Source: an uncultured Candidatus Saccharibacteria bacterium
GTDB lineage: Bacteria; Patescibacteriota; Saccharimonadia; Saccharimonadales; Saccharimonadaceae
NCBI GenBank assembly: GCA_964406525.1
Contig: CAYOSC010000001.1
Location: 1,174 to 65,173, forward strand
Direction: 5' to 3'
DNA: 64,000 nt
Part shown: positions 3,405 through 55,953 of the stretch, piece after piece
How the letters are laid out: each line of letters starts with the position of its first letter
Position numbering within the stretch: position 1 is the stretch's first letter
Made by a program: the position numbers and the translations under genes
The notes under the pieces: generated by a model
What the model saw: the letters and a program-made list of their open reading frames with translations, nothing else
What the model was told of the DNA's origin: nothing
Database searches by the model: none

Positions 3405-4430
3405 TCAAAAGCCAATCGAAAACCAATCATCCAAAATATAATCTTCACCATGGACGCCGGCGGCGGCGAGGATGGGCTGGTATGGCTGAAACTCAGGATG
3501 GCTGGCAAGGAAAGCAGTAGCGGCAAAACGCATTTGTTTGAGCTTTTGCGAAGTGATTTGATCGAGACTGGAGCCATGAGTTTGCGATTTGCGATATTTG
3601 ACTTCGGTGAAGTAGATTTTGTTATTTCTGGTAGAAACAATGTCGATTTCGTAAAGTTTGGTTTTATAATTATGGGCGATAATTTGATGATCGTGATTGA
3701 TGAGATAATCCATGACGACATACTCCCCGTGTTGACCGCGATAAGTAGTGGTGTCGAGAGGGTTGTTATTTTCCTGCTCATAAGCTTCTTGATGAGCGGG
3801 GTCGACTTGTGCGGGAGTAACCCCAGTAATACTGGTTTCTAGTAACTCACTGATAGGACGGAAACTTTTGCGATGCTCAGAGCAAATGCCGAGCTGTGCG
3901 AGTGCTTGTTTGTGGGCGGCGGTGCCGTAACCGACGTGCTTTTCGAAACCGTAGCCAGGGTATTTCTTGGCGAGATCGATCATGTAGTTATCACGAGCGA
4001 CTTTGGCGATGATGGAGGCGGCGGAGACTTCTTTGACGAGTAGATCGGCTTTCTTGAGTACAGTGACGCGGTTAGCGAGCGGGGTACTAGTGAGAAAATT
4101 GACGGTACCATCGATGATAATTTCGTCGAAAGGGACTTTGGTGGTGAGAATTTGTTTGACGGCGCGGCGGGCGGCAAGTTTAAGCGAATTGCTGAGGCCG
4201 TAACGATCGATTTCGGGAGCGAAAACCCAACCGAGACCAGTGGCGGCGGCTTTCTCTAGGATAATCGGGCTGAGTGAGGTGCGTTGCTTCGGGGTGAGCT
4301 TTTTGGAATCGGTGAGTTCGTCCGTCCAATCGGCCGTAGTCCCGAGGATGACGGCACCTATGACTAACGGCCCCGCCCAGGGGCCGCGTCCTACTTCATC
4401 TATACCTAAGATAGTTTTGGTTTTACTCAG
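3405..4430 (-). CDS. rnhB: Ribonuclease HII fused to a YraN/UPF0102-family endonuclease domain; non-canonical start (start coordinate uncertain, 4403-4445)
   Basis: The frame is open from 4445. Its N-terminal part reads KTILGIDEVGRGPWAGPLVIGAVIL...IIIDG...AASIIAKVARD...GYGT..H, which is RNase HII. The C-terminal part reads GQHGEYVVMDYL...YEIDIV...IYFTEVKYR, which is YraN. No ATG/GTG/TTG occurs in frame before 3983. A CTG at 4430 is preceded by GAGGA 8 nt upstream. Confidence 0.75.
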   Translation of the reverse strand: MSKTKTILGIDEVGRGPWAGPLVIGAVILGTTADWTDELTDSKKLTPKQRTSLSPIILEKAAATGLGWVFAPEIDRYGLSNSLKLAARRAVKQILTTKVPFDEIIIDGTVNFLTSTPLANRVTVLKKADLLVKEVSAASIIAKVARDNYMIDLAKKYPGYGFEKHVGYGTAAHKQALAQLGICSEHRKSFRPISELLETSITGVTPAQVDPAHQEAYEQENNNPLDTTTYRGQHGEYVVMDYLINHDHQIIAHNYKTKLYEIDIVSTRNNKIYFTEVKYRKSQTHGSSLDQITSQKLKQMRFAATAFLASHPEFQPYQPILAAAGVHGEDYILDDWFSIGF

Positions 4431-4866
4431 CTTTGGCTTCCTCAGCTACAGGCTCAGCAGCCTTTGGCTCTTCGGCTGGCTTGACTTCGGGGAGGGCATT
4501 GACGGCAGCGCGGTCAAAAGCTTTGGCGACGAGACGAGCAGATTTGCCAGAACGTTCGCGTAAGAAGGAAAGATTTTTGCGGCGGACTTTGGCGCGGTGA
4601 ACGATTTCGATTTTCTCAACAAGTGGATTGTGAATTAAGAATGACTTCTCAACGCCAACACCAGAGGCAACTTTGCGGACGGTAATGCGAGCAGTGTGGG
4701 AATCCTTGCGATCGGTGCGGATCACAACACCTTCGAATACCTGAGAGCGGAACTTTTCGCCTTCTTTAATCTTTTGGGTCACGCGAACGGTATCACCCGA
4801 GCGCACGTCGACAACAGCCGCTTTCTTCTGTGCGTCGCCGATTTCTTTCAAATCTGTAAAACTCAT
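4423..4866 (-). CDS. rplS: 50S ribosomal protein L19 with an Ala/Glu/Lys/Pro-rich C-terminal tail
   Basis: 147 aa. GDTVRV..KIKEGEK.R.Q.FEGVVI...RITVRK...GVGVEKSF..H.P is typical L19. Confidence 0.95.
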   Translation of the reverse strand: MSFTDLKEIGDAQKKAAVVDVRSGDTVRVTQKIKEGEKFRSQVFEGVVIRTDRKDSHTARITVRKVASGVGVEKSFLIHNPLVEKIEIVHRAKVRRKNLSFLRERSGKSARLVAKAFDRAAVNALPEVKPAEEPKAAEPVAEEAKAE

Positions 4867-4959: not shown

Positions 4960-5084
4960 TTTTTACTTACAAATACGCTGTTTTCTCGGGTCGCGTCCCT
5001 CGAGCTCGTCGTCACGAGTCTCGGGCGCTCATCCTCGGTCGTAACCTCCGGGAGTCCCGAGAAAAAGATATTTGTAAGTAAAAA
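4960..5084. repeat. Palindromic structured repeat element, copy A (family also at 42737..42852 and 47453..47570)
   Basis: Perfect 16-bp outer inverted repeat (tttttacttacaaata / tatttgtaagtaaaaa). It encloses a ~75-nt core that is near-identical to the other two copies. Confidence 0.8.
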
Positions 5085-5105: not shown

Positions 5106-5687
5106 TTAGTGCTGCTTAAGAGCTTCGCGAACACGTTCTTCGACGGAAAGGTTCGGGTCGACATCAGCTAGGGCAGCAGTAGCTTCTTTGAGCGGGAAAC
5201 CGAGTGCAATAAGGGCGTCGAGAGCTTCGTCCTCTGGCCCCTTCGGTGCGGAGGCGATAAAGGTTTCGGTGCGGCCGTAGTGTGAGGGTAGGCCAACTTT
5301 GTCGCGGAGATCGACAATAACACGTTCAGCGGATTTCTTACCAACGCCGCTAGCCTTGGCGATAAAGGCAGTATCGTCATTAGCGATGGCATTACGGACT
5401 TCTTCGGGTGTGCTGAGGCTGAGGATTGCCATGGCGGCTTTGGGGCCGATACCGTTGACGGAAATCAACATCTCGAGAAGCTTTTTGGCGGCAAGGCTGA
5501 GGAATCCATATAAATCTTCGCCATTTTCACGGACGGAATGATAGGTATAGAATTTGATCTGATCGTCGAGATGAACAGCTTCGGCGTCAGGAGTGCTGAT
5601 GGTGAGCTCGTAGCCAACTCCGTGGACGTCGACAATGACAGAATTAAGGAATTTTTCTGTAACGATACCGGAAATGTGAGCGATCAT
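5106..5687 (-). CDS. ruvA: Holliday junction branch-migration complex subunit RuvA
   Basis: 193 aa. N-terminal MIAHISG.V......VIVDVHGVGYE OB fold, HhH region (NGIGPK.A..IL) and a C-terminal domain. Confidence 0.9.
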   Translation of the reverse strand: MIAHISGIVTEKFLNSVIVDVHGVGYELTISTPDAEAVHLDDQIKFYTYHSVRENGEDLYGFLSLAAKKLLEMLISVNGIGPKAAMAILSLSTPEEVRNAIANDDTAFIAKASGVGKKSAERVIVDLRDKVGLPSHYGRTETFIASAPKGPEDEALDALIALGFPLKEATAALADVDPNLSVEERVREALKQH

Positions 5688-17093: not shown

Positions 17094-18551
17094 TTATTCG
17101 CTCCGGGCTTTGATAATTGGGAACGGAACCGCTTCGCGACCGCTAACGCCTTCGAGCAACCAGAAGTTGCGCTCGCTATTACCCCAGCCGCAGGCAGGTG
17201 GCATACCATATTCGAGCATCTCGACGAAATCCATATCGAGCATCTGCGCTTCATCATCACCATTATCGCGCATGGCTTGCTGTTCTTGGAAGCGTTCGAG
17301 CTGATCCAGCGGATCATTCAGCTCGCTGTAGCCGTTCCCCATCTCGGTGCCGGCAATAATCGGGTGGAAGCGCTGAGTGACGAGCGGATTCTCTGGTAGA
17401 GTTTTCGCTAGTGGGCTAAGTGCAAGTGGCTCTTCAATCAGCCAGTACGGGCCAGCGGAGGTCTTACGGATGAGCTTCCAGAGATTATCAATAATACGAG
17501 AATCGTTGGCTTGCGGATCAAGAGTGACGTTATGTTCTTTCAGAATCGCCAGAGCGCGTTCACGATCGAGCTGGAAGACATCAATATCGAACTTCTCTTT
17601 CAGAAGGTCAGAATATTTAATACGTGGCCATTCGCAATCCAGATCGACATCGAACCCACCGACGTGGAATTGCAAAGTTCCCCAAGTCTGCATGGCGACA
17701 TATTTAATCATTTCTTCGTAAAGTTTCATGCCGTCTTCGTAATCTTCGTAAGCAGCATAGCTCTCGAAAGCTATATGCTCGGGCAGATGCTCATCGTCGA
17801 CGCCTTCGTTGCGGAAGCGCGGACCGATATCGTAAACTTTTTCAAAACCGCCACCAAGTAGACGCTTGAGTGGGAGCTCCTGGGAAATGCGCAGATAATA
17901 ATCAGTATCTAGTGCATCCATGTGCGTAACGAATGGATTAGCATCGGCACCTCCAGTGGTTAGCTCGAGGACTGGGGTATTGACTTCGATGAAGCCGTGC
18001 TGATTCATGAAATCACGCGTAGCTTGCCAGAATTTCGAGCGACGCACTAGGCGTTCGCGGACTTCGGGATTCACATTCATATCGACATAGCGGCGTCGGT
18101 AGCGCTCTTCCTTATTCGTCAAGCCATCAAAACCTGGGAGTGGGCGTAGAGCCTTCGTGAGCAACCTTACGCTATCAGCAAATACGGAAATCTCTCCGGT
18201 GCTGGACTTACCGACTTTGCCAGTAGCTTCAATGAAGTCGCCCGTATCGAGGAGTTTGAGTTGCTTAATGCCGAATTGACCCGCTGGCACATCATCTGTC
18301 TTTTGCATGAAAATCTGAACCTCGCCGTGATAATCGCGAATCTTTACGAAAGCGATCTTGCCAAATGAGCGAATCGCTATGATACGGCCAGCAATACAGA
18401 CTTCCTGGCCATCCTTCTCATCAAAGTGGTTCAGAATGGTAGAAATCTTGGTATTGCGATGAGATTTGGCCGGATATGGATCGATCCCCTGCGTGCGGAT
18501 CTCGGCCAGCTTCCTTAATCTTTCATCACGATAATCACTCAAAGTAGTCAT
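17094..18551 (-). CDS. lysS: Lysyl-tRNA synthetase, class II
   Basis: 485 aa. N-terminal OB anticodon-binding domain (GR....R..GK..F..IRD) and class II motifs (..FRNEG.., ..GWG.G..R). Confidence 0.95.
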   Translation of the reverse strand: MTTLSDYRDERLRKLAEIRTQGIDPYPAKSHRNTKISTILNHFDEKDGQEVCIAGRIIAIRSFGKIAFVKIRDYHGEVQIFMQKTDDVPAGQFGIKQLKLLDTGDFIEATGKVGKSSTGEISVFADSVRLLTKALRPLPGFDGLTNKEERYRRRYVDMNVNPEVRERLVRRSKFWQATRDFMNQHGFIEVNTPVLELTTGGADANPFVTHMDALDTDYYLRISQELPLKRLLGGGFEKVYDIGPRFRNEGVDDEHLPEHIAFESYAAYEDYEDGMKLYEEMIKYVAMQTWGTLQFHVGGFDVDLDCEWPRIKYSDLLKEKFDIDVFQLDRERALAILKEHNVTLDPQANDSRIIDNLWKLIRKTSAGPYWLIEEPLALSPLAKTLPENPLVTQRFHPIIAGTEMGNGYSELNDPLDQLERFQEQQAMRDNGDDEAQMLDMDFVEMLEYGMPPACGWGNSERNFWLLEGVSGREAVPFPIIKARSE

Positions 18552-40643: not shown

Positions 40644-42716
40644 TTACTTACGGCGTTCGCGGATAATATTCTTACTACATAGGTAGGTGATAATAAAGTA
40701 TCCACCATAAATTATCGCGAGCAGGAGTGCGACGCCGGGGAGCGCCTGCATGATATTGACGCCGCCGAGTGTGCCGAGGATGAGATTACAGAATTTAAAG
40801 CCGAATACAGCGTGCAAGACAGCGAGTAGTAGCGGGAAGAGGAAGAAGATAAAGATCTGCCAGAATAATGCACGATGCAGCATGGATTCGCTGGCGCCGA
40901 TTTTGCGTAAGATGCTATATTTGTTGCGATTATCGTTGCTTTCAGAAAGCTCTTTGAGAGCAAGGATGGCGGCGCTGGAGATTAGGAAAATAATCCCAAG
41001 ATATAGACCAATGAAAGTCACCATCGCCGATGTGCCGACGCTATTGTCGATGATTGACTGCTTAGTATCGACGTCGTAATAGTAGATCTCTTGATCAGGG
41101 CTCTCATCGTAATCGCCATTCTCACTATAGAACCGGTTACTAATCGAGTCAAGCTTGCGCTCGATTTCTTCCGCACGGTCAGCATCGGCATAATTCGCTA
41201 ATATATACTCCCGCACATAGGCCGAGCTAGCGTCTTTCAAAATGGCGTCCGGTACGATGATGAGGCCTTGATTCACGTTGCCAGTGCCGAGCTTAATCGT
41301 ACCTTCAATACACTTATCACTTTGTGGAGAAAGGGTATGCCCGAGAACATTGATCGTCGTTCCCTGCGCGAGTGCGCGATTACGCAACCCGATAATTTGT
41401 TGATAATCTGCGATGATCGCATACTCGTTGTCGGCTAAATTGACAGTCGGTAAGTCGAAAAGTTCTGCTGCTCGATTATAATCACTCTGGCTGATAAATT
41501 CCTCGGTAAAGCTAAATGACCCATCAACATCCATACCGTAGACTGCGCCATTCTCGCCGACTTCGGCAAAAGCACTACCGAGAGTATCGCCGACGGAGAT
41601 ATCATCAATTAAATAATTACGGTAGGTCACGCGATCTTTGATCAGGTCGTTGAGATTAACATTTTCGCGGCGATAAATTTCTTCAATGTCGAGCGCATTA
41701 CGGCCAATACTGGTGATCTGTACGTCAGCTGGTAAACGTTTTTCGATCGACTCGTGGAGTGAGGAACTAATCGACAGGGCGGAGCCGAGAATACAAATTG
41801 TAAAGAAGAGCATCAGACAAATTACAGTCATCGAAGCGACAGTGGTATTAATTTTACTACTGAATTGACGGAGGACAAAGGAATTCAATTTATTATAATA
41901 AACTTTTTTCATGCTCATGAAGATACGCAGCAATAGTCCTGAGAGTGACCAGAATAACAGGAAGGTCGACACGACGCCCATACCGATCGGGATCAAAAGT
42001 CCAGAAGCATCATTAAATTCGCTGATGAAACTAATGCCATCGGTGACGAGATAATAAGCCCAGCCCAGGATAATCGCAGCGACAATGAAGACAATGGTAC
42101 AGACCCAAGGGTTTTTGAGTTTGATCTTTTCGTTGCGGCGATTAGATGATAATAAATTAATTAATTTCTGGCGACTAATCACGATGGTATTAAAAATCAT
42201 TACGACAATATAAATAATGCCGAAATAAATTAATGTTTGGACGAGTGCGGACGATGAGAAAACGAAATGGAAATTCGTCATATTAGCATCAAACATATTC
42301 GCAACTAACATGCTGGTAAATTGCGAGGCAACGATGCCGAGCAATAATCCGACGGCAAGCGAGAGGATACCGATCAGGACGGTTTCGAGGAGCAAAATCA
42401 GGGAAATCTTGCGCTTGCTCATACCGAGGGTGAGATAAATTCCAAATTCTTTACTACGCCGCTTGATTAAGAAACGCGAGGCGTAGATAATCAGAGCGCC
42501 GAGAATAAAAGCTACGAAAACGCTGACGATGCGCATGATGACGTTGACTAGATTCATCATTTCGCGCACACGATCGCTAACGTCGAGCATAATCGCCTGG
42601 CTATCGAGTGCATTAAAAACGTAGAAAATTGCCACGCCCAAAACTAAGGTGAAAAAATAAATGGCGTAATCTTTGATACTGCGTTTAATATTTTTTAATG
42701 CTAATTTAGCGAACAT
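40644..42716 (-). CDS. BceB-like ABC permease (10 TM, two FtsX domains, large extracellular loop)
   Basis: 690 aa. Strong AGGAGG RBS. The architecture is typical of bacitracin/lantibiotic-type BceAB transporters. Confidence 0.75.
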   Translation of the reverse strand: MFAKLALKNIKRSIKDYAIYFFTLVLGVAIFYVFNALDSQAIMLDVSDRVREMMNLVNVIMRIVSVFVAFILGALIIYASRFLIKRRSKEFGIYLTLGMSKRKISLILLLETVLIGILSLAVGLLLGIVASQFTSMLVANMFDANMTNFHFVFSSSALVQTLIYFGIIYIVVMIFNTIVISRQKLINLLSSNRRNEKIKLKNPWVCTIVFIVAAIILGWAYYLVTDGISFISEFNDASGLLIPIGMGVVSTFLLFWSLSGLLLRIFMSMKKVYYNKLNSFVLRQFSSKINTTVASMTVICLMLFFTICILGSALSISSSLHESIEKRLPADVQITSIGRNALDIEEIYRRENVNLNDLIKDRVTYRNYLIDDISVGDTLGSAFAEVGENGAVYGMDVDGSFSFTEEFISQSDYNRAAELFDLPTVNLADNEYAIIADYQQIIGLRNRALAQGTTINVLGHTLSPQSDKCIEGTIKLGTGNVNQGLIIVPDAILKDASSAYVREYILANYADADRAEEIERKLDSISNRFYSENGDYDESPDQEIYYYDVDTKQSIIDNSVGTSAMVTFIGLYLGIIFLISSAAILALKELSESNDNRNKYSILRKIGASESMLHRALFWQIFIFFLFPLLLAVLHAVFGFKFCNLILGTLGGVNIMQALPGVALLLAIIYGGYFIITYLCSKNIIRERRK

Positions 42717-42736
42717 GATTAAATCCTCCTAGCCTA

Positions 42737-42852
42737 CTCTGCAAATATGCTTTTTCTCGGGCCGCGTCCCTCGAGCCCGTCGTTACGGGTCTCGGGCGCT
42801 CATCCTCGGTCGTGACCTCCGGGAGTCCCGAGAAAAAGATATTTGCAAAGAG
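42737..42852. repeat. Palindromic structured repeat element, copy B
   Basis: Outer arms ctct-gcaaatat / atatttgcaaagag. The core is near-identical to copy A. It lies in the 326-bp gap between the bceA-like and bceB-like genes. Confidence 0.8.
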
Positions 42853-43042
42853 CAGTGCTAAACGATTGAATTTATTCAAGTTAATAACAGAAAAATATTT
42901 TTCATTTCGCGTAAGACCAGAAAATGGGCAGAAATTAAGGGATTTTACTTGTATAAAAATTTGTTTATTTTTTAATATGCGGTTTGGGCAGGTTTTGAGG
43001 GCGTTACCGTTGGTGAAAAATTTTTGTGAATTAAGATTTTTT

Positions 43043-43810
43043 CTATAACGCATCGCTTAAATCTCCGCCGAGCAATGTAATCACATCGATAATTGCATCA
43101 AAGAACTTTTTGCGCGAGTCGTTACCTTTGCGCAGTTCATTAAAAATCTTACCGTCTTTAATAAAAATCACGCGCGTGGCATATGAAGCGGCGAACGCAT
43201 CGTGCGTGACCATGAGAATGGTGGCATTGAGATTTTGATTGAGCGCATCAAACTGCTCCAGAAGCATGCGCGAAGATTTGGAATCTAGCGCACCAGTTGG
43301 CTCATCAGCGAGTACGAGTTTCGGCTTCGTGACGATAGCGCGAGCGGAGGCGACACGTTGTTTCTGACCGCCGCTCATTTGGTATGGGAATTTCTTCAGG
43401 ACATTTTGAATATTTAGTTCTTTGGCGATTTGATCAACGCGATCTTCGATCTCGTGGACGTTGACATTTTGGATCGACAAAGCCAGGGCGATGTTCTCGT
43501 AAGCCGTCAAGGAATCAAGCAAGTTAAAATCTTGAAAAATAAAACCGAGCTCCTCACGGCGAAAGCGATTCAGTTCGTCCCCACGCAAGCTAGTAATGTC
43601 CTCACCGTCGACGTAAATGTGTCCGGAAGTGACGCGGTCAATCGTGGAAATCACGTTGAGCAAGGTAGTCTTGCCAGAGCCGCTTGAGCCCATGATGGCG
43701 ACGAATTCGCCTTCGTCGACTTTGAAAGAAATATTATCAATCGCCTTCGTGAGCGAAGAGCGGCTGCCGTAATATTTTTCGACTTTCTCTAATTCTAGAA
43801 TTGTTTTCAT
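43043..43810 (-). CDS. BceA-like ABC transporter ATP-binding protein
   Basis: 255 aa. Walker A GSSGSGKTT, signature MSGGQKQR and Walker B LVLADEPT. Confidence 0.85.
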   Translation of the reverse strand: MKTILELEKVEKYYGSRSSLTKAIDNISFKVDEGEFVAIMGSSGSGKTTLLNVISTIDRVTSGHIYVDGEDITSLRGDELNRFRREELGFIFQDFNLLDSLTAYENIALALSIQNVNVHEIEDRVDQIAKELNIQNVLKKFPYQMSGGQKQRVASARAIVTKPKLVLADEPTGALDSKSSRMLLEQFDALNQNLNATILMVTHDAFAASYATRVIFIKDGKIFNELRKGNDSRKKFFDAIIDVITLLGGDLSDAL

Positions 43811-43913
43811 AGTTTCTCCTTGGTGTATATTTTAGCGGTTAAGTAATATTTTGTCGTGAGTTTAAAATTACAGTTGAATTACTTTTTTGTAAGGTTGCAG
43901 AAGCGCGGATGAG

Positions 43914-44918
43914 CTAGCTTTCGTCGATTTGGTAATAATCGTTGAGCGAAAAAGTAATGTTAACCTGCGTATATTTGCCAGCTTCGGACTGGGCGGAGAT
44001 TTGATGGCCGAACCGCTCGCAGAGGGTCTTCGCGATATAGAGACCCATACCGGTAGATTGCGCGCCGCGGCGGCCGTTGCCACCAGTGAAGGATTTTTCA
44101 AAAATTCGCGGGAGGTCTTTCTCGGTGATGCCAATACCGTTGTCGCGGATACTGAGAGTAACTTTCCGATCGTGCTCGCGGGCAGAAATTTCGATGCGGC
44201 TACTTTGATATTTAATACTATTATTAATAATCTGATTGAGGACAAACTCGAGCCACTTCGCATCGGAGCGCACAGTATAGTCGAGATCCTTCGCGATCAG
44301 GTCGATGTGCTTAGCCTGGAGCAACTCACGGTTGCGGCTGGCGACTTTGCCGATGAGATCAGAAAGCTGAACCGGCGCGATGAGATAATCTTTCTCGGCG
44401 TTTTCGGCGCGCGCAAAATACAAGATCTGTTCAACGTAATCATCGATGCGTTTGACTTGCTCGGAAATTTGCGGATTGTCAGAAATGACGGCGAGGGTAG
44501 CCAGCGGAGTCTTAACTTCGTGAATCCACATTTCGACATATTCTTGGAACTCCTGAGAACGGATTTTATATTTCTTCACGTTTTCGTTCATGGAGTGATT
44601 AATATCGCAGAGAATTTCGAACAGAATTTTACCGTCATAGAAATTCGGACATTCAAGCGTCTCCAGTACGAGGTAAGCTTGATCGAGCTGGGTGATATTA
44701 TTATACAAATTGCGGTAAAAGTTGCGCTTGCGGTAATATTCAATCAGCAAAACTGCGACTACGAAGACCACCCAGATAATGCCGAGTGCAATGATGGCTT
44801 CGACATTGACTTTATACGCGACTAGAAACGGAAACATTGCGAGACCGAGCACGGTCACAGCGATTAGGAAATAACTTTTGTCACGCAGGAAGGCACGGAA
44901 GCTGAGCAGGGGTTTCAT
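43914..44918 (-). CDS. Intramembrane-sensing histidine kinase (BceS-like)
   Basis: 334 aa. Two N-terminal TM helices with a minimal external loop, H-box HEVKTPL, and N/G boxes in the HATPase domain. Confidence 0.8.
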   Translation of the reverse strand: MKPLLSFRAFLRDKSYFLIAVTVLGLAMFPFLVAYKVNVEAIIALGIIWVVFVVAVLLIEYYRKRNFYRNLYNNITQLDQAYLVLETLECPNFYDGKILFEILCDINHSMNENVKKYKIRSQEFQEYVEMWIHEVKTPLATLAVISDNPQISEQVKRIDDYVEQILYFARAENAEKDYLIAPVQLSDLIGKVASRNRELLQAKHIDLIAKDLDYTVRSDAKWLEFVLNQIINNSIKYQSSRIEISAREHDRKVTLSIRDNGIGITEKDLPRIFEKSFTGGNGRRGAQSTGMGLYIAKTLCERFGHQISAQSEAGKYTQVNITFSLNDYYQIDES

Positions 44919-45604
44919 TGGAGGATGTACCCCAAGCCTTTGCGCGTCTCGATCGCGTCGGCGGCGCCGAGAGCCTTGAGTTTCGCGCGGACACGGCTGA
45001 TATTGACCGTCAAAGCATTATCATTAATATATTCATGATTATTCCAGAGGTCGGTCATCAGAGCATCACGCGTGACAATCTGACCTTGATGATTCAGCAG
45101 GTGGCCAAGGATGATCATTTCGTTCTTGGTCAGGAGGACGCGCTTCTGACTGTTTTCGATCACGCCGCGAGCGAGGTCAATGCGCAAGTCGCGAAATTTT
45201 AGCAGTTCAGTGTTTCCTTCCATGCGCTTGAGGACGGCAGCGATACGCAGGAGCAAAACTTGTGGGCTATAAGGCTTCGTCACGAAATCGTCCGCGCCGT
45301 AGCTCATCGACAGCACTTCGTCCATCTCGGAACTACTGCTAGTCAACATGATGACGGGCGTAGTGGACTGGGTACGGAGAGTTTTTAATAGTAATTCCCC
45401 GTTGACGCCGGGTAAATTAATGTCGAGCAGGATTAGCTGCGGCTGCAAATCCACAATCTCGTCGATTAAGTGCGCGAGGTTCTCACTACCGGATTGCAAA
45501 AGTTCGTCCGGCAAGCTAATCGCTTCATAGCCATTGCTACGCAAGAGGTCGGTCAGACCCTGGCGCATAACCGCTTCGTCTTCGATGATGAGTATTCGCT
45601 GCAT
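44915..45604 (-). CDS. OmpR-family response regulator (BceR-like)
   Basis: 229 aa. Receiver domain (ILIIEDE...LILLDINLPG) plus a winged-helix domain (...LT..E..IL..L......V.R..L). Confidence 0.9.
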   Translation of the reverse strand: MQRILIIEDEAVMRQGLTDLLRSNGYEAISLPDELLQSGSENLAHLIDEIVDLQPQLILLDINLPGVNGELLLKTLRTQSTTPVIMLTSSSSEMDEVLSMSYGADDFVTKPYSPQVLLLRIAAVLKRMEGNTELLKFRDLRIDLARGVIENSQKRVLLTKNEMIILGHLLNHQGQIVTRDALMTDLWNNHEYINDNALTVNISRVRAKLKALGAADAIETRKGLGYILQ

Positions 45605-46938: not shown

Positions 46939-47090
46939 GTGTTACAATAATTCATTGCGATAAGAAGGCTGATTTTATTAATGCCGTTTTGCCGATAAAA
47001 ATGACACCGCGAGGATAGTCATGTCGGTAAACTGGTAACCAGCTTTGTCCGATGGATTATTGTAACACCCTCGTGGTGTCATTTTTGTTT
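46939..47090 (+). promoter_or_regulatory. Structured 5' leader (motif copy 2) with helices A:A' and B:B', the latter followed by a U-run
   Basis: A 46939..46953 gtgttacaataattc pairs with A' 47054..47068 ggattattgtaacac (15 bp, 1 G-U). B 46997..47014 pairs with B' 47069..47086 (18 bp, 1 G-U), followed by tttttgttt. Confidence 0.6.
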
Positions 47091-47132
47091 AGTTGCGTTG
47101 CCAAAAGTGGCACTCCTGGAGGTTATATAAAT

Positions 47133-47359
47133 CTAGCACGGCTTTTGCTAGGAAAAACATTGTAGCTTTACATCTCTATAATTCTACTAACGGGGTTCGG
47201 TGGACCTCTCAAAATCGAATCCCTGCCCAAACAATATTTCAAGCAGAGTCCTTTATATAAAAATTGGGCAGGGCCGTGATTTTGGCCCGGTCCAGCCGGA
47301 AAATAACCCCTTTTAGCAGAATTACTAGAGATGTAAAGCAAGAAGCACTAGCAAAAGCC
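47133..47359. mobile_element. ~227-bp near-perfect foldback (MITE-like) element flanked by a 9-bp near-direct repeat
   Basis: Arms pair in perfect blocks of 12, 14, 7, 4, 6, 6, 7 and 10 bp around a ~33-nt AT-rich apex. TATATAAAT (47124..47132) and TATATGAAT (47360..47368) flank it. Confidence 0.55.
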
Positions 47360-47387
47360 TATATGAATCCACAAAAGGAGGGCGATC

Positions 47388-49202
47388 ATGCACTACAAGA
47401 AATGTAAACTTCATAAGCTACATAGTATTCCGATAGGCTTATGTAAGAAAGCATGTTCCTTAATCCGCTTTTCCTCAGGACGCGTTCCTCGAACCCGTCG
47501 TCACGGGTCTCGGCCGCTCATTCTCGGTCGTGACCTCCGAAAGCCTTCGGAAAAGGTATTAAAGGAACATAGCAACTTTTCTACAAAAAGATTGTATTTA
47601 GTTTCTTATAGTATTCCTCTAAGTTGTATGGTCGTTCTCCTTTTGGGACTTGGTGTGATGGTTAATCCAGAATTATTCTTAGTAGATAAGAGTAGTGCCA
47701 TCACGATACAGGATGAATGGGTGGTTAAGAAAAATAGTTCTAGCTCTGGTTATTCTGCTGGTGTTGAAGATGAGAATGATAGTGGCTCTAATGCAGTCGA
47801 AAATGCCGATTCGATCGATGATAGCTTCGGTGGCTTCGGAGGAGATAAAGTAGAACTCTCACAAGAAGATACTGATGCAGGAATAAGCTTACAATCAATA
47901 GTGCCTGCTCCTACCTTAGCCATTACGGTTAGTAATAGTAATCAAACTATTGATGCCGTACAAGGTGGTAATACAGTATATGGCAGTTACAATGTAGGTA
48001 TTACTGGTAGTAATGTAAAAGATTATACCTTAAGTATTAAAGCTGATGCAGTGAATCTAGTATCACCTAGTCAGGCTAGTACTCCTACTACGGTAACTGG
48101 AGCAGGTGGTAAAACTGGCGATAGTATGACTGCTAATACTTGGGGGTATAAGCTTACAGAAACTAGTACAGCAGAATCTAGTTATGGCACACTTAACTAT
48201 GCTAGCCTACCTACTACACTTACACAAATAGCTAATGGTACAGTAGCTTCTCCGTATAACTTATCTGCTAATAAGAAGTTAGTCTTTGCTGCGAAGTTTT
48301 CTGATACAGCTGCTCCTGGTACTTATAAAGGGCATATTACATTAAGTGCCGTAGCTAATCAGGCAGTAGTAGGAGCCATATGGTCTAGTGGGGTTGATTC
48401 TGGCATTACGGATATGCAGGATGTAAGCTCAGGGTTTTGCAGGAACAATAGTAAGATAGCAACGGGCGACACAATTGAGTTGAAGGATAACCGTGATGAT
48501 ACCACTTACACAATAGTAAAGCTGGGGGATAAATGTTGGATGGGACAGAACTTAAGCTTAACTGGGCCAAAGACTCTAGCCTCAGGAGATAGTGATTTTC
48601 CCTCAGGTATGACTTGGGATTTACCAGCAAGTGTTGGCTCAGGTGGAACTAATACTAATAATGTCAATACGAGTAATACCTGGGATACAAGTAACTATAA
48701 CGTAATCCAAATCCGTACTGGTAGTACCAATTTATCTACCAGCTGGAAGAGTGGCTATGGTAATTACTATTCTTGGCCAGCAGCCACGGCAGGAACTGGA
48801 ACTACATCAGTTACTAGTGCTGACGCTTCTGCGAGTATTTGTCCAAAAGGATGGAAACTACCGCCAAACTCTGGTGCAGATTCTTATACAACTTTGACTG
48901 GTACGAAGAGTAGTTGGACAACAGCAACTTTTAATGGTAATTCCGGTGTATATGGTTATTACCTTGGATCGACAGCTACCAATATTTACAAAGGTGCTAA
49001 CTTCTGGCCTGCCGCCGGCGGCGTCTACCAGACTAGTGGCGCACTCGGCGATGCAGGCTCCTACGGCTACTATTGGTCCCGTACTGCCTACTCCAATAGT
49101 AGCTACGCCTACCGCCTGCTCTTCAGTAGCTCCGGTGTGTACCCCACGAGCGACGCCAGTCGCTTCTACGGTTACTCCGTGCGGTGCGTCGCCACGTATT
49201 AA
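47388..49202 (+). CDS. Secreted FISUMP-domain protein (paralog of 18610..19926, domain order permuted); the N-terminal region contains an in-frame repeat-element insertion
   Basis: The ATG follows AAAAGGAGGG, the same RBS as the paralog. Signal-like LSCMVVLLLGLGVMV. C-terminal ELKDNRDDTTYTIVKLGDKCWMGQNL, YYSWPAATAG, ICPKGWKLPPNSG, YYWSRT and YSVRCV. Confidence 0.7.
   Translation: MHYKKCKLHKLHSIPIGLCKKACSLIRFSSGRVPRTRRHGSRPLILGRDLRKPSEKVLKEHSNFSTKRLYLVSYSIPLSCMVVLLLGLGVMVNPELFLVDKSSAITIQDEWVVKKNSSSSGYSAGVEDENDSGSNAVENADSIDDSFGGFGGDKVELSQEDTDAGISLQSIVPAPTLAITVSNSNQTIDAVQGGNTVYGSYNVGITGSNVKDYTLSIKADAVNLVSPSQASTPTTVTGAGGKTGDSMTANTWGYKLTETSTAESSYGTLNYASLPTTLTQIANGTVASPYNLSANKKLVFAAKFSDTAAPGTYKGHITLSAVANQAVVGAIWSSGVDSGITDMQDVSSGFCRNNSKIATGDTIELKDNRDDTTYTIVKLGDKCWMGQNLSLTGPKTLASGDSDFPSGMTWDLPASVGSGGTNTNNVNTSNTWDTSNYNVIQIRTGSTNLSTSWKSGYGNYYSWPAATAGTGTTSVTSADASASICPKGWKLPPNSGADSYTTLTGTKSSWTTATFNGNSGVYGYYLGSTATNIYKGANFWPAAGGVYQTSGALGDAGSYGYYWSRTAYSNSSYAYRLLFSSSGVYPTSDASRFYGYSVRCVATY
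47453..47570. repeat. Palindromic structured repeat element, copy C (inside the CDS, in frame)
   Basis: Outer arms atgttcctt-aat / attaaaggaacat. The core is homologous to copies A and B, with compensatory changes in the closing stem. Confidence 0.75.
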
Positions 49203-54525: not shown

Positions 54526-55953
54526 CTATTTTAGCTTAGCTCGGAGAATCTCTTGGGCGGCAGACGGGTTGGCTTTGCCCTTGGACTCTTTCATGACTTG
54601 GCCGACGAGGAAGCCGATGACTTTTTCTTGACCGGCTTTGAAATCAGCTTGAGCTTGCTGAGTCTCGGGCTTCGCTAGGACGGCATCGACGATCGCTTCG
54701 AGCGCGCCGAGATCATTTTCCTGGACGACACCGAGTTCCTTCGCGATAATACGAGTATCCTTGTGATGCATCTCGGGGTCGAAGAACTTAATGAAGACTT
54801 CTTTCATGCCAGTACTAGAGAGTTCATTCGCATCATTCATGGCGACCAGCTCGAGTAGCTGCGCTTGGCTCGGGAGCTCATCATTGAGCATGCTAGAATT
54901 TTCCTCAGCCAGCAAGACGGACGAGAAGAGATTGGCGATTTTCTTCACAGCGGCAGGATTTTCGAGCTCGGCTAACTTCCCCATCAGCTGCGGGTAATCT
55001 AGCAAAGTCTCGAGTGTATCATTATTTAGAACATCGCGAAATGCTTGACGATACCAAGATGGAAGTTTCGGGAGAGCTGCGCGCTCTTCGTCAACGACAG
55101 CAGCAGAGAGTTTGATTGGCGGAATATCCGGCTCGGGCATATAGCGGTAATCTTGAGCGGCTTCCTTGCTGCGCTGGGAGGTAGTCTCACCAGTGGCGTC
55201 ACTCCAGCCGCGCGTCTCTTGAACGACTTTTTCGCCCTTGTCGAGGAGCTTAGCTTGACGCTTAATCTCGTACTCGACGGCGCGCTCGACACTACGGAAA
55301 GAATTGAGGTTCTTGACTTCGGCGCGGGTGCCGAGCTCAGTGCTGCCTTCCGGCGCGATACTAATATTGACATCGAAACGCATATTACCATTGTAGAGAT
55401 CGCCAAAAGTAACTTCGGCATAAGTCATCAGGCGCCAGAGCTCCTTCACATATTCGCGAGCTTCGACGGCAGAGTGAATATCGGGCATGGAAACGATTTC
55501 GACCAACGGAGTGCCAGCGCGGTTCAGATCAACTAACGAATCACCATTTTCATGGCTGAGCTTACCGGCGTCTTCTTCGAGATGCGCATGTTCGATGCGG
55601 ACTTTACTGCCGCTCGGTAGCTCGACGTAGCCTGCGCCAATGATCGGGTGGAATAATTGGGTGATTTGATAGCCCTTCGGGAGATCAGGATAGAAATAGT
55701 GCTTGCGGTCGAAACGACTCTCGAGATTGATCGTGGAATTAAGCGCTAGGCCAGCGCGCACAGCGTATCTAACTGCAGCTTGATTTAATCTTGGGAGCAT
55801 ACCGGGTAAGCCGTAGTCGACTGGCGAGACGCAAGAGTTCGGCTCTTTGCCGCGGGCATCATTATCAACTTCTGAGAAAAGTTTGGTCTTCGTGCAGAGC
55901 TGCACATGGCACTCGATGCCGATAGTTGGAATATATTTCACTGAATTAGCCAT
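54526..55953 (-). CDS. gatB: Asp/Glu-tRNA(Asn/Gln) amidotransferase subunit B
   Basis: 475 aa. IGIECHVQL, DLNRAG.PL.EIV and a C-terminal YqeY-like tail. Confidence 0.95.
   Translation of the reverse strand: MANSVKYIPTIGIECHVQLCTKTKLFSEVDNDARGKEPNSCVSPVDYGLPGMLPRLNQAAVRYAVRAGLALNSTINLESRFDRKHYFYPDLPKGYQITQLFHPIIGAGYVELPSGSKVRIEHAHLEEDAGKLSHENGDSLVDLNRAGTPLVEIVSMPDIHSAVEAREYVKELWRLMTYAEVTFGDLYNGNMRFDVNISIAPEGSTELGTRAEVKNLNSFRSVERAVEYEIKRQAKLLDKGEKVVQETRGWSDATGETTSQRSKEAAQDYRYMPEPDIPPIKLSAAVVDEERAALPKLPSWYRQAFRDVLNNDTLETLLDYPQLMGKLAELENPAAVKKIANLFSSVLLAEENSSMLNDELPSQAQLLELVAMNDANELSSTGMKEVFIKFFDPEMHHKDTRIIAKELGVVQENDLGALEAIVDAVLAKPETQQAQADFKAGQEKVIGFLVGQVMKESKGKANPSAAQEILRAKLK

Follow-up and report, generated by a model that had tools for sequence, protein, structure and literature searches.

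What kind of element is the hairpin of 116 to 125 nucleotides (nt) that occurs three times, always on the + strand, in one stretch of the genome of an uncultured Candidatus Saccharibacteria bacterium, and does its fold act as RNA or as DNA? The stretch, referred to here as the window, comprises 64,000 nt of contig CAYOSC010000001.1 (assembly GCA_964406525.1), and its sequence is also contained in mouse and rat gut metagenome runs. A first-pass annotation, made from the letters alone, had recognized the three copies, A to C. Their positions and their common strand were confirmed:

4960..5084, + strand: copy A, a 125-nt hairpin element between ruvA and rplS
42737..42852, + strand: copy B, 116 nt, in the intergenic spacer that separates an ABC ATPase gene from an FtsX permease gene
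47453..47570, + strand: copy C, 118 nt, more diverged, in-frame within the N-terminal tail of a Fib_succ_major protein

Our confidence is high that these copies belong to a mobile, fold-constrained repeat of the kind known in Rickettsia as palindromic elements (RPEs). It is moderate for the view that the fold acts as DNA rather than RNA, and low for what we propose about the mobilizing enzyme and the origin of the arms. On balance, we read the family as small non-autonomous selfish DNA elements of Saccharibacteria that act as folded DNA.

A repeat search of the window delimited a core of 97 nt, in which copy B is 94% and copy C 73% identical to copy A. Within the window, a 32-nt core pattern matched copies A, B and C only (0 matches in 100 shuffles), and a filter-free covariance-model scan returned no fourth copy. 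The model scores were 95.3 bits for copy A, 98.4 bits for copy B and 91.9 bits for copy C. Folding energies were -55.1 kcal/mol (A), -56.1 kcal/mol (B) and -43.7 kcal/mol (C); compared with dinucleotide shuffles, these correspond to z-scores of -7.4, -5.5 and -4.0, respectively.

Further copies beyond the window had been expected, and about 50 were found by pattern scans and a covariance model together. An exact 20-base core pattern had 20 matches in 185,579 GTDB species genomes. Thirteen of these were full elements in metagenome-assembled genomes (MAGs) of Saccharibacteria or Nanosyncoccus from sheep, goat, roe deer and other guts, including five in the single MAG CAYODP01; the remaining seven were chance matches inside unrelated genes of other phyla. 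A second pattern, representing the other half of the core, identified 22 metagenome contigs without taxon assignment. The covariance model R1, built from 13 copies, recovered all of these elements and gave 19 and 23 matches, among them divergent copies that were invisible to both patterns. All real copies in the genome collection were located in animal-gut MAGs of Saccharibacteria or Nanosyncoccus.

The first-pass annotation had recognized no known RNA family in the repeat, and this was borne out. The whole window had no Rfam match at the gathering threshold, and three diverse copies had only chance matches at E <= 10 (E = 2-9). Inspection of either strand by eye did not reveal a hammerhead, twister, hepatitis delta virus-like or ZTP-type core. 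An origin from phages, plasmids or viruses was rejected, as no match was found in phage genomes, plasmids or viral contigs. In the full-text literature, no relevant palindromic element, MITE (a miniature transposable element with inverted repeats) or RPE-type element was found for Saccharibacteria, Patescibacteria or the candidate phyla radiation, and the family of gut Saccharibacteria hairpin elements has apparently gone undescribed so far.

Fold of the element and covariation of its head

The first-pass annotation had described the family as a palindromic repeat. The family is real, but the fold is not a plain palindrome; it is a three-way junction on a long stem. The unit is a single long hairpin of 115-135 nt, or of up to ~165-190 nt in variants with nested hairpins. 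Its stem of 25-45 bp consists of copy-specific outer arms and a semi-conserved helix, P1; the part of the stem beyond P1 measures 15-35 bp in each copy. The stem is capped by a conserved Y-shaped head of ~65 nt with the branches P2/P2a and P3/P3b, whose two apical loops resemble one another. In the window, the parts are located as follows:

4960..4980, + strand: left outer arm of copy A, TTTTTACTTACAAATACGCTG, paired with 5066-5084
4981..4990, + strand: 5' strand of P1 of copy A, TTTTCTCGGG, paired with 5056-5065 (CCCGAGAAAA)
4993..5028, + strand: branch P2 of copy A, with 4993-5003 paired with 5019-5028
5005-5018, + strand: apical hairpin P2a of copy A, CTCGTCGTCACGAG, on P2
5030..5054, + strand: branch P3 of copy A, with CATCC (5030-5034) paired with GGGAG (5050-5054)
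5037-5046, + strand: apical hairpin P3b of copy A, GGTCGTAACC, on P3
5056-5065, + strand: 3' strand of P1 of copy A
5066-5084, + strand: right outer arm of copy A, AGATATTTGTAAGTAAAAA
42737-42751 and 42837-42852: arms of copy B, with P1 at 42752-42761 (paired with 42827-42836), P2a at 42776-42789 and P3b at 42808-42817
47453-47469 and 47555-47570: arms of copy C, with P1 at 47470-47479 (paired with 47545-47554), P2a at 47494-47507 and P3b at 47526-47535

The closing helix P1 of the window, TTTTCTCGGG/CCCGAGAAAA, has two mismatches in copy C. Branch P2 contains a bulged U and ends in hairpin P2a (CCCG-UCGUYA-CGGG). Branch P3 is formed by CAUNC and GNNAG, followed by an internal loop (UC/UCC) and hairpin P3b. 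The family falls into two subtypes, between which both apical loops switch together. In the first, the P2a loop is CGUY and P3b is GGU-CGUR-ACC; in the second, the P2a loop is CGCC and P3b is GCCU-UGCC-AGGC or GCGC-UGCC-GCGC. The long variants (L002:5983-6115, L018:2468-2597 and L026:7669-7829) carry an extra two-hairpin module ending in CGCGTCCCAAGGGGCG, which is nested in the P2a loop, the P3b loop or both, and this motif was found nowhere else among the fetched loci. Kissing of the two loops (GUYAC with GURAC) was rejected for lack of covariation between positions Y and R.

Two compensatory changes that had been noted between the window copies were verified. The inner hairpin reads CTCGT/ACGAG in copy A and CCCGT/ACGGG in copies B and C, and the closing stem reads TTTTCT/AGAAAA in copies A and B and TTTTCC/GGAAAA in copy C. 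The covariation to be expected of a folded repeat proved to be strong across the family. In an ungapped MAFFT alignment of 13 copies (A3), 88% of the cells pair, compared to a mean of 75.5% after shuffling (0 of 500 shuffles as high) and to 33-57% in controls in which the pairing partner was moved by 1-3 columns; 16 pairs change on both sides. In a 36-copy alignment (A4), 30 of the 33 core pairs change on both sides (223 cells), compared to 7-14 pairs in the slid controls, although these counts are somewhat inflated because the alignment was fitted to the model. Across the family, all 10 pairs of P1 covary, 12 of the 15 pairs of P2 change on both sides, and the P3b stem covaries across the subtypes (GGU/ACC, GCCU/AGGC, GCGC/GCGC). 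RNAalifold recovered P1, P2 and P2a independently from the MAFFT alignment. The junction and the loops (ACGCGUC, GUCGUNAC, GCGCUCAUNCUC and CUCCG) are almost invariant among genomes whose GatB proteins are only 64-70% identical. The head is under structural constraint: its stems covary, and its loops and junctions are fixed.

Selection on the fold had been put forward as the source of the compensatory changes. Pairing is indeed kept, but part of the change may have been supplied by conversion between copies or arms. The copies at L022:8302-8401 and L023:8181-8280 have near-identical flanks and arms, yet several compensated pairs distinguish P2 and P3b in the two heads, a pattern more suggestive of a head taken over from another copy than of stepwise mutation. 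Orthologous copies also differ by compensated pairs, mostly in the arms (5 between the GatB copies L011 and L016, 8 between the RluB copies L028 and L038). Selection on master copies accounts for the covariation among lineages, but is probably not a complete explanation.

Presence, absence and the copy-specific arms

The whole hairpin, including its arms, is present or absent between close relatives, and its insertion was precise and without target duplication. The loci compared are flanked by, or contained in, the following genes:

5106-5687, - strand: ruvA, flanking copy A
4423-4866, - strand: rplS, flanking copy A
43043-43810, - strand: ABC ATPase gene, flanking copy B
40644-42716, - strand: FtsX permease gene, flanking copy B
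47388-49202, + strand: open reading frame (ORF) of the Fib_succ_major protein, host of copy C

As the RplS and RuvA proteins of the window have no identical database record, empty loci were reached via RuvA homologues. Homologues with 86-98% identity led to nine related ruvA-rplS loci, and all nine lacked copy A. In an alignment (A10) with the closest empty locus, L043, the window gains exactly the 125-nt hairpin between ...GCGCTAAATG and TGATATGAAGC... (- strand). No direct repeat or target duplication was present at the ends of copy A relative to L043, which is the only base-resolved site. The same empty contig, of 3179 nt, was recovered independently in an alignment of assembled contigs to the window. 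Both arms are missing at the empty sites, indicating that both belonged to the inserted unit. The neighboring 3' end of rplS is itself variable: 81-196 nt are skipped in related contigs (window 4406-4603, - strand), and the low-complexity Pro/Glu/Ala/Lys tail at the C-terminus of ribosomal protein L19 differs in length among relatives.

Empty counterparts of copy B were found in runs X6 and X7. In these, positions 42732-42892 are replaced by 14 nt, or 42732-42942 by 64 nt, of unrelated bases. The surrounding region (40644-45604) is a BceAB-type module of ABC ATPase, FtsX-family permease, histidine kinase and response regulator. An ORF of 115 codons (42706-43053, - strand) traverses copy B in an open antisense frame and overlaps both flanking genes; it is most likely spurious, a product of the stop-free element.

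Copy C had been reported as the one in-frame copy within a coding sequence, and this was corroborated. Its host ORF (47388-49202) is preceded by a strong Shine-Dalgarno sequence, AAAGGAGGG, located 5 bases 5' of the ATG at 47388. In element-free contigs of paralogous genes, 5-16 other bases link 47446/47451 to 47586/47592, and these contigs differ from the window by 126, 123, 135, 126 and 126 nt, all multiples of three. In four rodent-gut runs, contig depth at 47064-47145, 47351-47432 and 47597-47678, around copy C, was 10-100x that of the surroundings. These stretches look like parts common to a large family of Fib_succ_major (PF09603) paralogues, namely their upstream leader and their N-terminal signal-anchor.

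Contig depth over the element core ranged from several-fold to ~60-fold that of the unique flanks, and many contigs ended there with different neighbors. The excess suggests several to tens of copies per genome, a rough figure given that related strains are mixed in the samples. No target or flank motif was common to the three window sites.

The outer arms read TTTTTACTTACAAATA/TATTTGTAAGTAAAAA in copy A, CTCTGCAAATAT/ATATTTGCAAAGAG in copy B and ATGTTCCTTAAT/ATTAAAGGAACAT in copy C. The first-pass annotation had regarded the outermost stem as different in each copy yet complementary. Complementarity holds, but the arms are not wholly different, as copies A and B share an inner CAAATAYGCT/AGATATTTG. 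For the family as a whole, we compared the 26 nt on each side of the modelled region. The duplex of a copy's own left and right arms averaged -20.7 kcal/mol, compared to -7.7 +/- 3.9 kcal/mol for arms from different copies, and in 24 of 35 copies the left arm paired best with the right arm of the same copy; the remainder were near-identical sister copies and three decayed copies. Conservation drops from the center outward, the reverse of what is found in a transposon with terminal inverted repeats. The idea that the arms are an inverted target flank was rejected for copy A, since both arms are missing at the empty sites. It is possible for old copies inside genes.

Copies inside protein genes

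A long open frame runs across about half of the 36 well-scoring copies, and at least 20 housekeeping protein families hold in-frame copies. The parallel with RPEs that had been drawn from the coexistence of intergenic and in-frame copies is thus much stronger than could be recognized at first. Comparison with Pfam and PDB identified UvrD/PcrA, GatB, Der, MnmA, PolA, an RluB-type protein, TsaD, a class-V aminotransferase, ArgRS, ValRS and LeuRS as hosts, in which the in-gene element forms an additional segment of a loop or linker. In UvrD/PcrA, the insert amounts to ~36 residues between PcrA residues 83 and 88; in Der it lies between the two GTPase domains, and in DNA polymerase I (PolA) between the 5'-3' exonuclease and the polymerase domain. 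Peptide searches added TruB, UvrC, TrmD, FolD, a MurB-like protein, TatD, a methyltransferase and a Wzy_C protein, with the reservation that the peptide motif is too short for databases of billions of sequences and that only 8 and 22 matches were significant.

Empty orthologues were available for several hosts. The window gene 54526-55953 is an empty GatB orthologue, relative to which the protein of locus L011 has 33 and that of L016 27 additional residues (another window ORF, 17094-18551, was rejected as GatB). Empty Der orthologues are present in L022 and L023, and Der of L018 is longer by 33 residues. Empty orthologues were also found for ArgRS, the aminotransferase and RluB. The empty RluB allele (L002:5328-5984) contains a 12-bp DNA hairpin, TTTACTATCATC/GATGGTAAA, centered on the insertion point that is used elsewhere in either orientation. 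It might represent a footprint or a preferred target.

Nine independent copies are in sense and six verified copies in antisense orientation to their host gene, with two more antisense copies in unverified ORFs. Opposite orientations were found at the same site of MnmA, RluB and PolA, in host proteins that are 62-75% identical. At least five frames are used (sense A, B and C; antisense alpha and gamma). The commonest peptides are ..SRAAS.RPV[AV]TG..RSSS.. in sense and ..GEDERA.PV[AT]TG.GDA.R.. in antisense orientation, and both variable loop positions are third codon positions in these two common frames. Three of the six frames are free of stop codons in the first subtype and five of the six in the second. 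Every in-gene copy keeps the host frame and lacks a stop codon. As only frame-open copies are seen in genes, the host protein gains a low-complexity loop of 27-45 residues.

Two further ideas about the coding copies were rejected. In-place flipping that keeps a fixed pair of frames is not compatible with the stem register, which shows no consistent phase, and so does not account for the opposite orientations at the same sites. A minus-strand leader peptide (an ORF AUGAGCGCC... ending in the URA loop) was regarded as a coincidence; it is out of frame with the open antisense frame.

Alternative readings and known relatives

If the family indeed consists of selfish DNA that acts in folded form, the fold would be read during mobilization, as a single-stranded hairpin or a cruciform, and would not work in place as a functional RNA. 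An enzyme that acts in trans and is encoded elsewhere may then recognize the junction together with the twin loops, with HUH-type or recombinase-type enzymes as candidates. The strand-specificity of the head would reflect the specificity of this recognition, and, as the apical loops switch jointly, both may be touched by a single reader, perhaps a dimer. Complementarity of the arms may be renewed by hairpin-templated repair or template switching, together with conversion between copies. That three to five of the six frames are free of stops might be a selected trait, enabling insertions to survive in compact, gene-dense genomes.

Several observations weigh against this reading or are not covered by it. 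The head is strand-specific, scoring 98 bits on the forward and 9-12 bits on the reverse strand, and strand-specific, near-invariant loops would be equally expected of a functional RNA made from one strand. The pair counts of the 36-copy alignment carry the bias mentioned above. Insertion was resolved to the base at one site only, that of copy A. No mobilizing enzyme was found, and no transposase-like gene lies beside any copy in the fetched loci. No terminal sequence is common to all copies of the family, and the conserved ends of classical transposons are lacking. Nor does the reading explain where the copy-specific arms come from. Finally, the hairpin is longer than the net insert in GatB, Der and MnmA, where codons of the outer arms align with host residues. 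Such short net inserts in old copies are not predicted by a model in which the whole hairpin moves.

In these three genes, the palindrome may have extended into the host sequence; alternatively, the alignment of the variable linkers may be accidental. Template switching at quasi-palindromes is a known mutational process that can extend palindromes. Taken further, this leads to a bolder, tentative picture, which we regard as rather doubtful. The element would be a new type of DNA-hairpin parasite in ultra-small bacteria, in which an enzyme reads the Y-shaped head as single-stranded DNA via the twin loops, the stem is renewed and spreads into neighboring codons by hairpin-templated copying, and the head is swapped or flipped in place, so that essential Saccharibacteria proteins would be rewritten continuously in a manner driven by structure and not by sequence. 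The hints in this direction are the host-aligned arms in GatB, Der and MnmA, the exchanged heads of L022 and L023, and the occurrence of both orientations in three genes.

A functional structured RNA, i.e. a cis-regulatory element, a small RNA or a protein-binding RNA, with the repeats as gene copies or regulatory sites, is unlikely. Invariant loops and junctions combined with covarying stems are typical of such RNAs, and the model distinguishes the strands (98 versus 12 bits). The P3b region also contains ACCUCC, which resembles an anti-Shine-Dalgarno sequence. One host-labelled RNA-seq run had no reads, and two runs flagged as possibly RNA gave scattered 151-nt contigs only; a short contig from a run of this kind covers a copy. 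However, the copies lie in both orientations with respect to the transcribing genes, even at the same site of MnmA, RluB and PolA, and G-U pairs exceed A-C mismatches only weakly (37 to 22 in 1,175 cells). Mixed orientation, opposite orientations at one site and the modest G-U excess are hard to reconcile with a specific RNA role in place. In addition, about half of the copies lie within coding sequence, presence varies among close relatives, the neighboring gene is not consistent, and Rfam gave no match even at the relaxed threshold.

The element could also be a classical MITE, an internally deleted derivative of a cut-and-paste insertion sequence (IS) whose transposase reads terminal inverted repeats. 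We consider this improbable. The element resembles a MITE in being small, multi-copy and palindromic, in lacking a transposase gene and in varying between strains, and the inner arm CAAATAYGCT is common to copies in the window lineage. In bacterial MITEs such as ERIC, Correia, BOX, RUP and Coxiella QMITE, the terminal inverted repeats are conserved, and target duplications are usual. In the Saccharibacteria element, by contrast, the ends are the least conserved part and share no terminal sequence, conservation peaks in the center, and a target-site duplication is absent at the base-resolved site, so that the comparison fails on both termini and duplication. A longer, ORF-carrying relative was not found in ~450 kb of fetched loci, nor was an autonomous IS with matching ends seen in the fetched loci. 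The likeness extends to the fact that ERIC, Correia, BOX, RUP and QMITE are small and multi-copy, fold when transcribed, and in some cases fuse in-frame with ORFs (PMC10969869).

Other known elements are read as folded DNA. REP and REPIN elements, mobilized by RAYT transposases of the Y1/HUH type, and palindrome-associated elements derived from IS200/IS605 are non-autonomous hairpins read as folded single-stranded DNA, without target duplication and with compensatory change. Copy A, likewise, is a hairpin inserted without target duplication. REP and REPIN elements are extragenic and shorter, with a conserved 5' tetranucleotide, whereas about half of the Saccharibacteria copies are in coding sequence. 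In the fetched loci, the surroundings of the copies contained neither a RAYT nor a TnpA gene. The T-shaped hairpin termini of parvoviruses (e.g. the inverted terminal repeats of adeno-associated virus, AAV), integron attC sites and the attP site of CTX phage combine a long stem with two small hairpins at its tip, and an HUH nuclease or a tyrosine recombinase reads them as folded DNA. Here the likeness is in shape only, since the Saccharibacteria element has no replication or cassette context and no linked enzyme, and our recognition model is drawn by analogy.

A peptide module, i.e. a flexible linker kept or spread for the benefit of the host protein with the nucleotide fold as a by-product, is highly improbable. 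Independent sense insertions in UvrD, GatB and Der do use one frame (..GHAS.RPVVTG..RS.SVVTS..), and both variable positions of the loops coincide with third codon positions, in the sense as well as the antisense frame. Nevertheless, at least five different frames are in use, intergenic copies are conserved equally, and the inserts occupy linkers and loops of unrelated enzymes. Compensated changes also alter amino acids on both sides, e.g. P<->A in GatB between L011 and L016. We give almost no credence to an intervening sequence excised after transcription, e.g. by RNase III or by an endonuclease together with RtcB: the 25-45 bp stem would juxtapose the host junctions, the structure of -55 to -110 kcal/mol should hinder translation of essential genes, and it is kept in orthologous in-gene copies, but the host frame is kept and stops are avoided (even though stops occur in one to three of the six frames), neither of which an excised sequence needs, length differences from empty alleles are always whole codons, and insertion in either orientation would require the processing of two different RNAs.

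In its behavior, the element has its closest parallel in Rickettsia. RPEs (RPE-1 to RPE-10) are ~100-150 bp long, often lie in-frame in housekeeping ORFs, to which they add a conserved peptide, and lack a transposase (PMC10969869). In both cases, a palindromic multi-copy repeat of ~100-150 bp occupies a reduced, host-associated genome, in-frame in unrelated housekeeping genes and elsewhere in intergenic copies. The hosts differ, Alphaproteobacteria in one case and Saccharibacteria of the candidate phyla radiation in the other, and the Saccharibacteria element is distinguished by its covarying three-way-junction head, its twin loops, its copy-specific arms and its use of both orientations and several frames. 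We know of no sequence relation between the two; phylum and description set them apart. By this comparison, the Saccharibacteria element would be a behavioral analogue of the RPEs and not a member of any RPE family.

Palindromes also spread in compact organellar genomes, as the G+C-rich palindromes of fungal mitochondria (GC clusters and double-hairpin elements) do, and mitochondrial genes of Nematomorpha hold coding palindromes with the frame kept (PMC6649704). These organelle palindromes differ in lacking a conserved three-way-junction head, and evidence for a shared mechanism is absent.

The genomes of Saccharibacteria and of other bacteria in the candidate phyla radiation are tiny, gene-dense and thought to be poor in mobile elements. 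If our reading is correct, an abundant element that survives because most of its frames can be translated would add an independent second example to the phenomenon of selfish DNA within protein genes, known mainly from Rickettsia, and would suggest that the strategy follows generally from genome reduction. The in-gene element affects enzymes of replication, repair, tRNA modification and aminoacylation, and the 27-45 added residues in conserved proteins affect alignments and phylogenies that are based on MAGs. The element also breaks assemblies and creates spurious ORFs such as 42706-43053. Its conserved Y-shaped head provides a well-defined ligand with which the mobilizing protein might be sought.

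With regard to strand, GC skew is positive on the + strand almost everywhere in the window (1-64000). The genes are nearly all on the - strand, and copies A to C are on the + strand.

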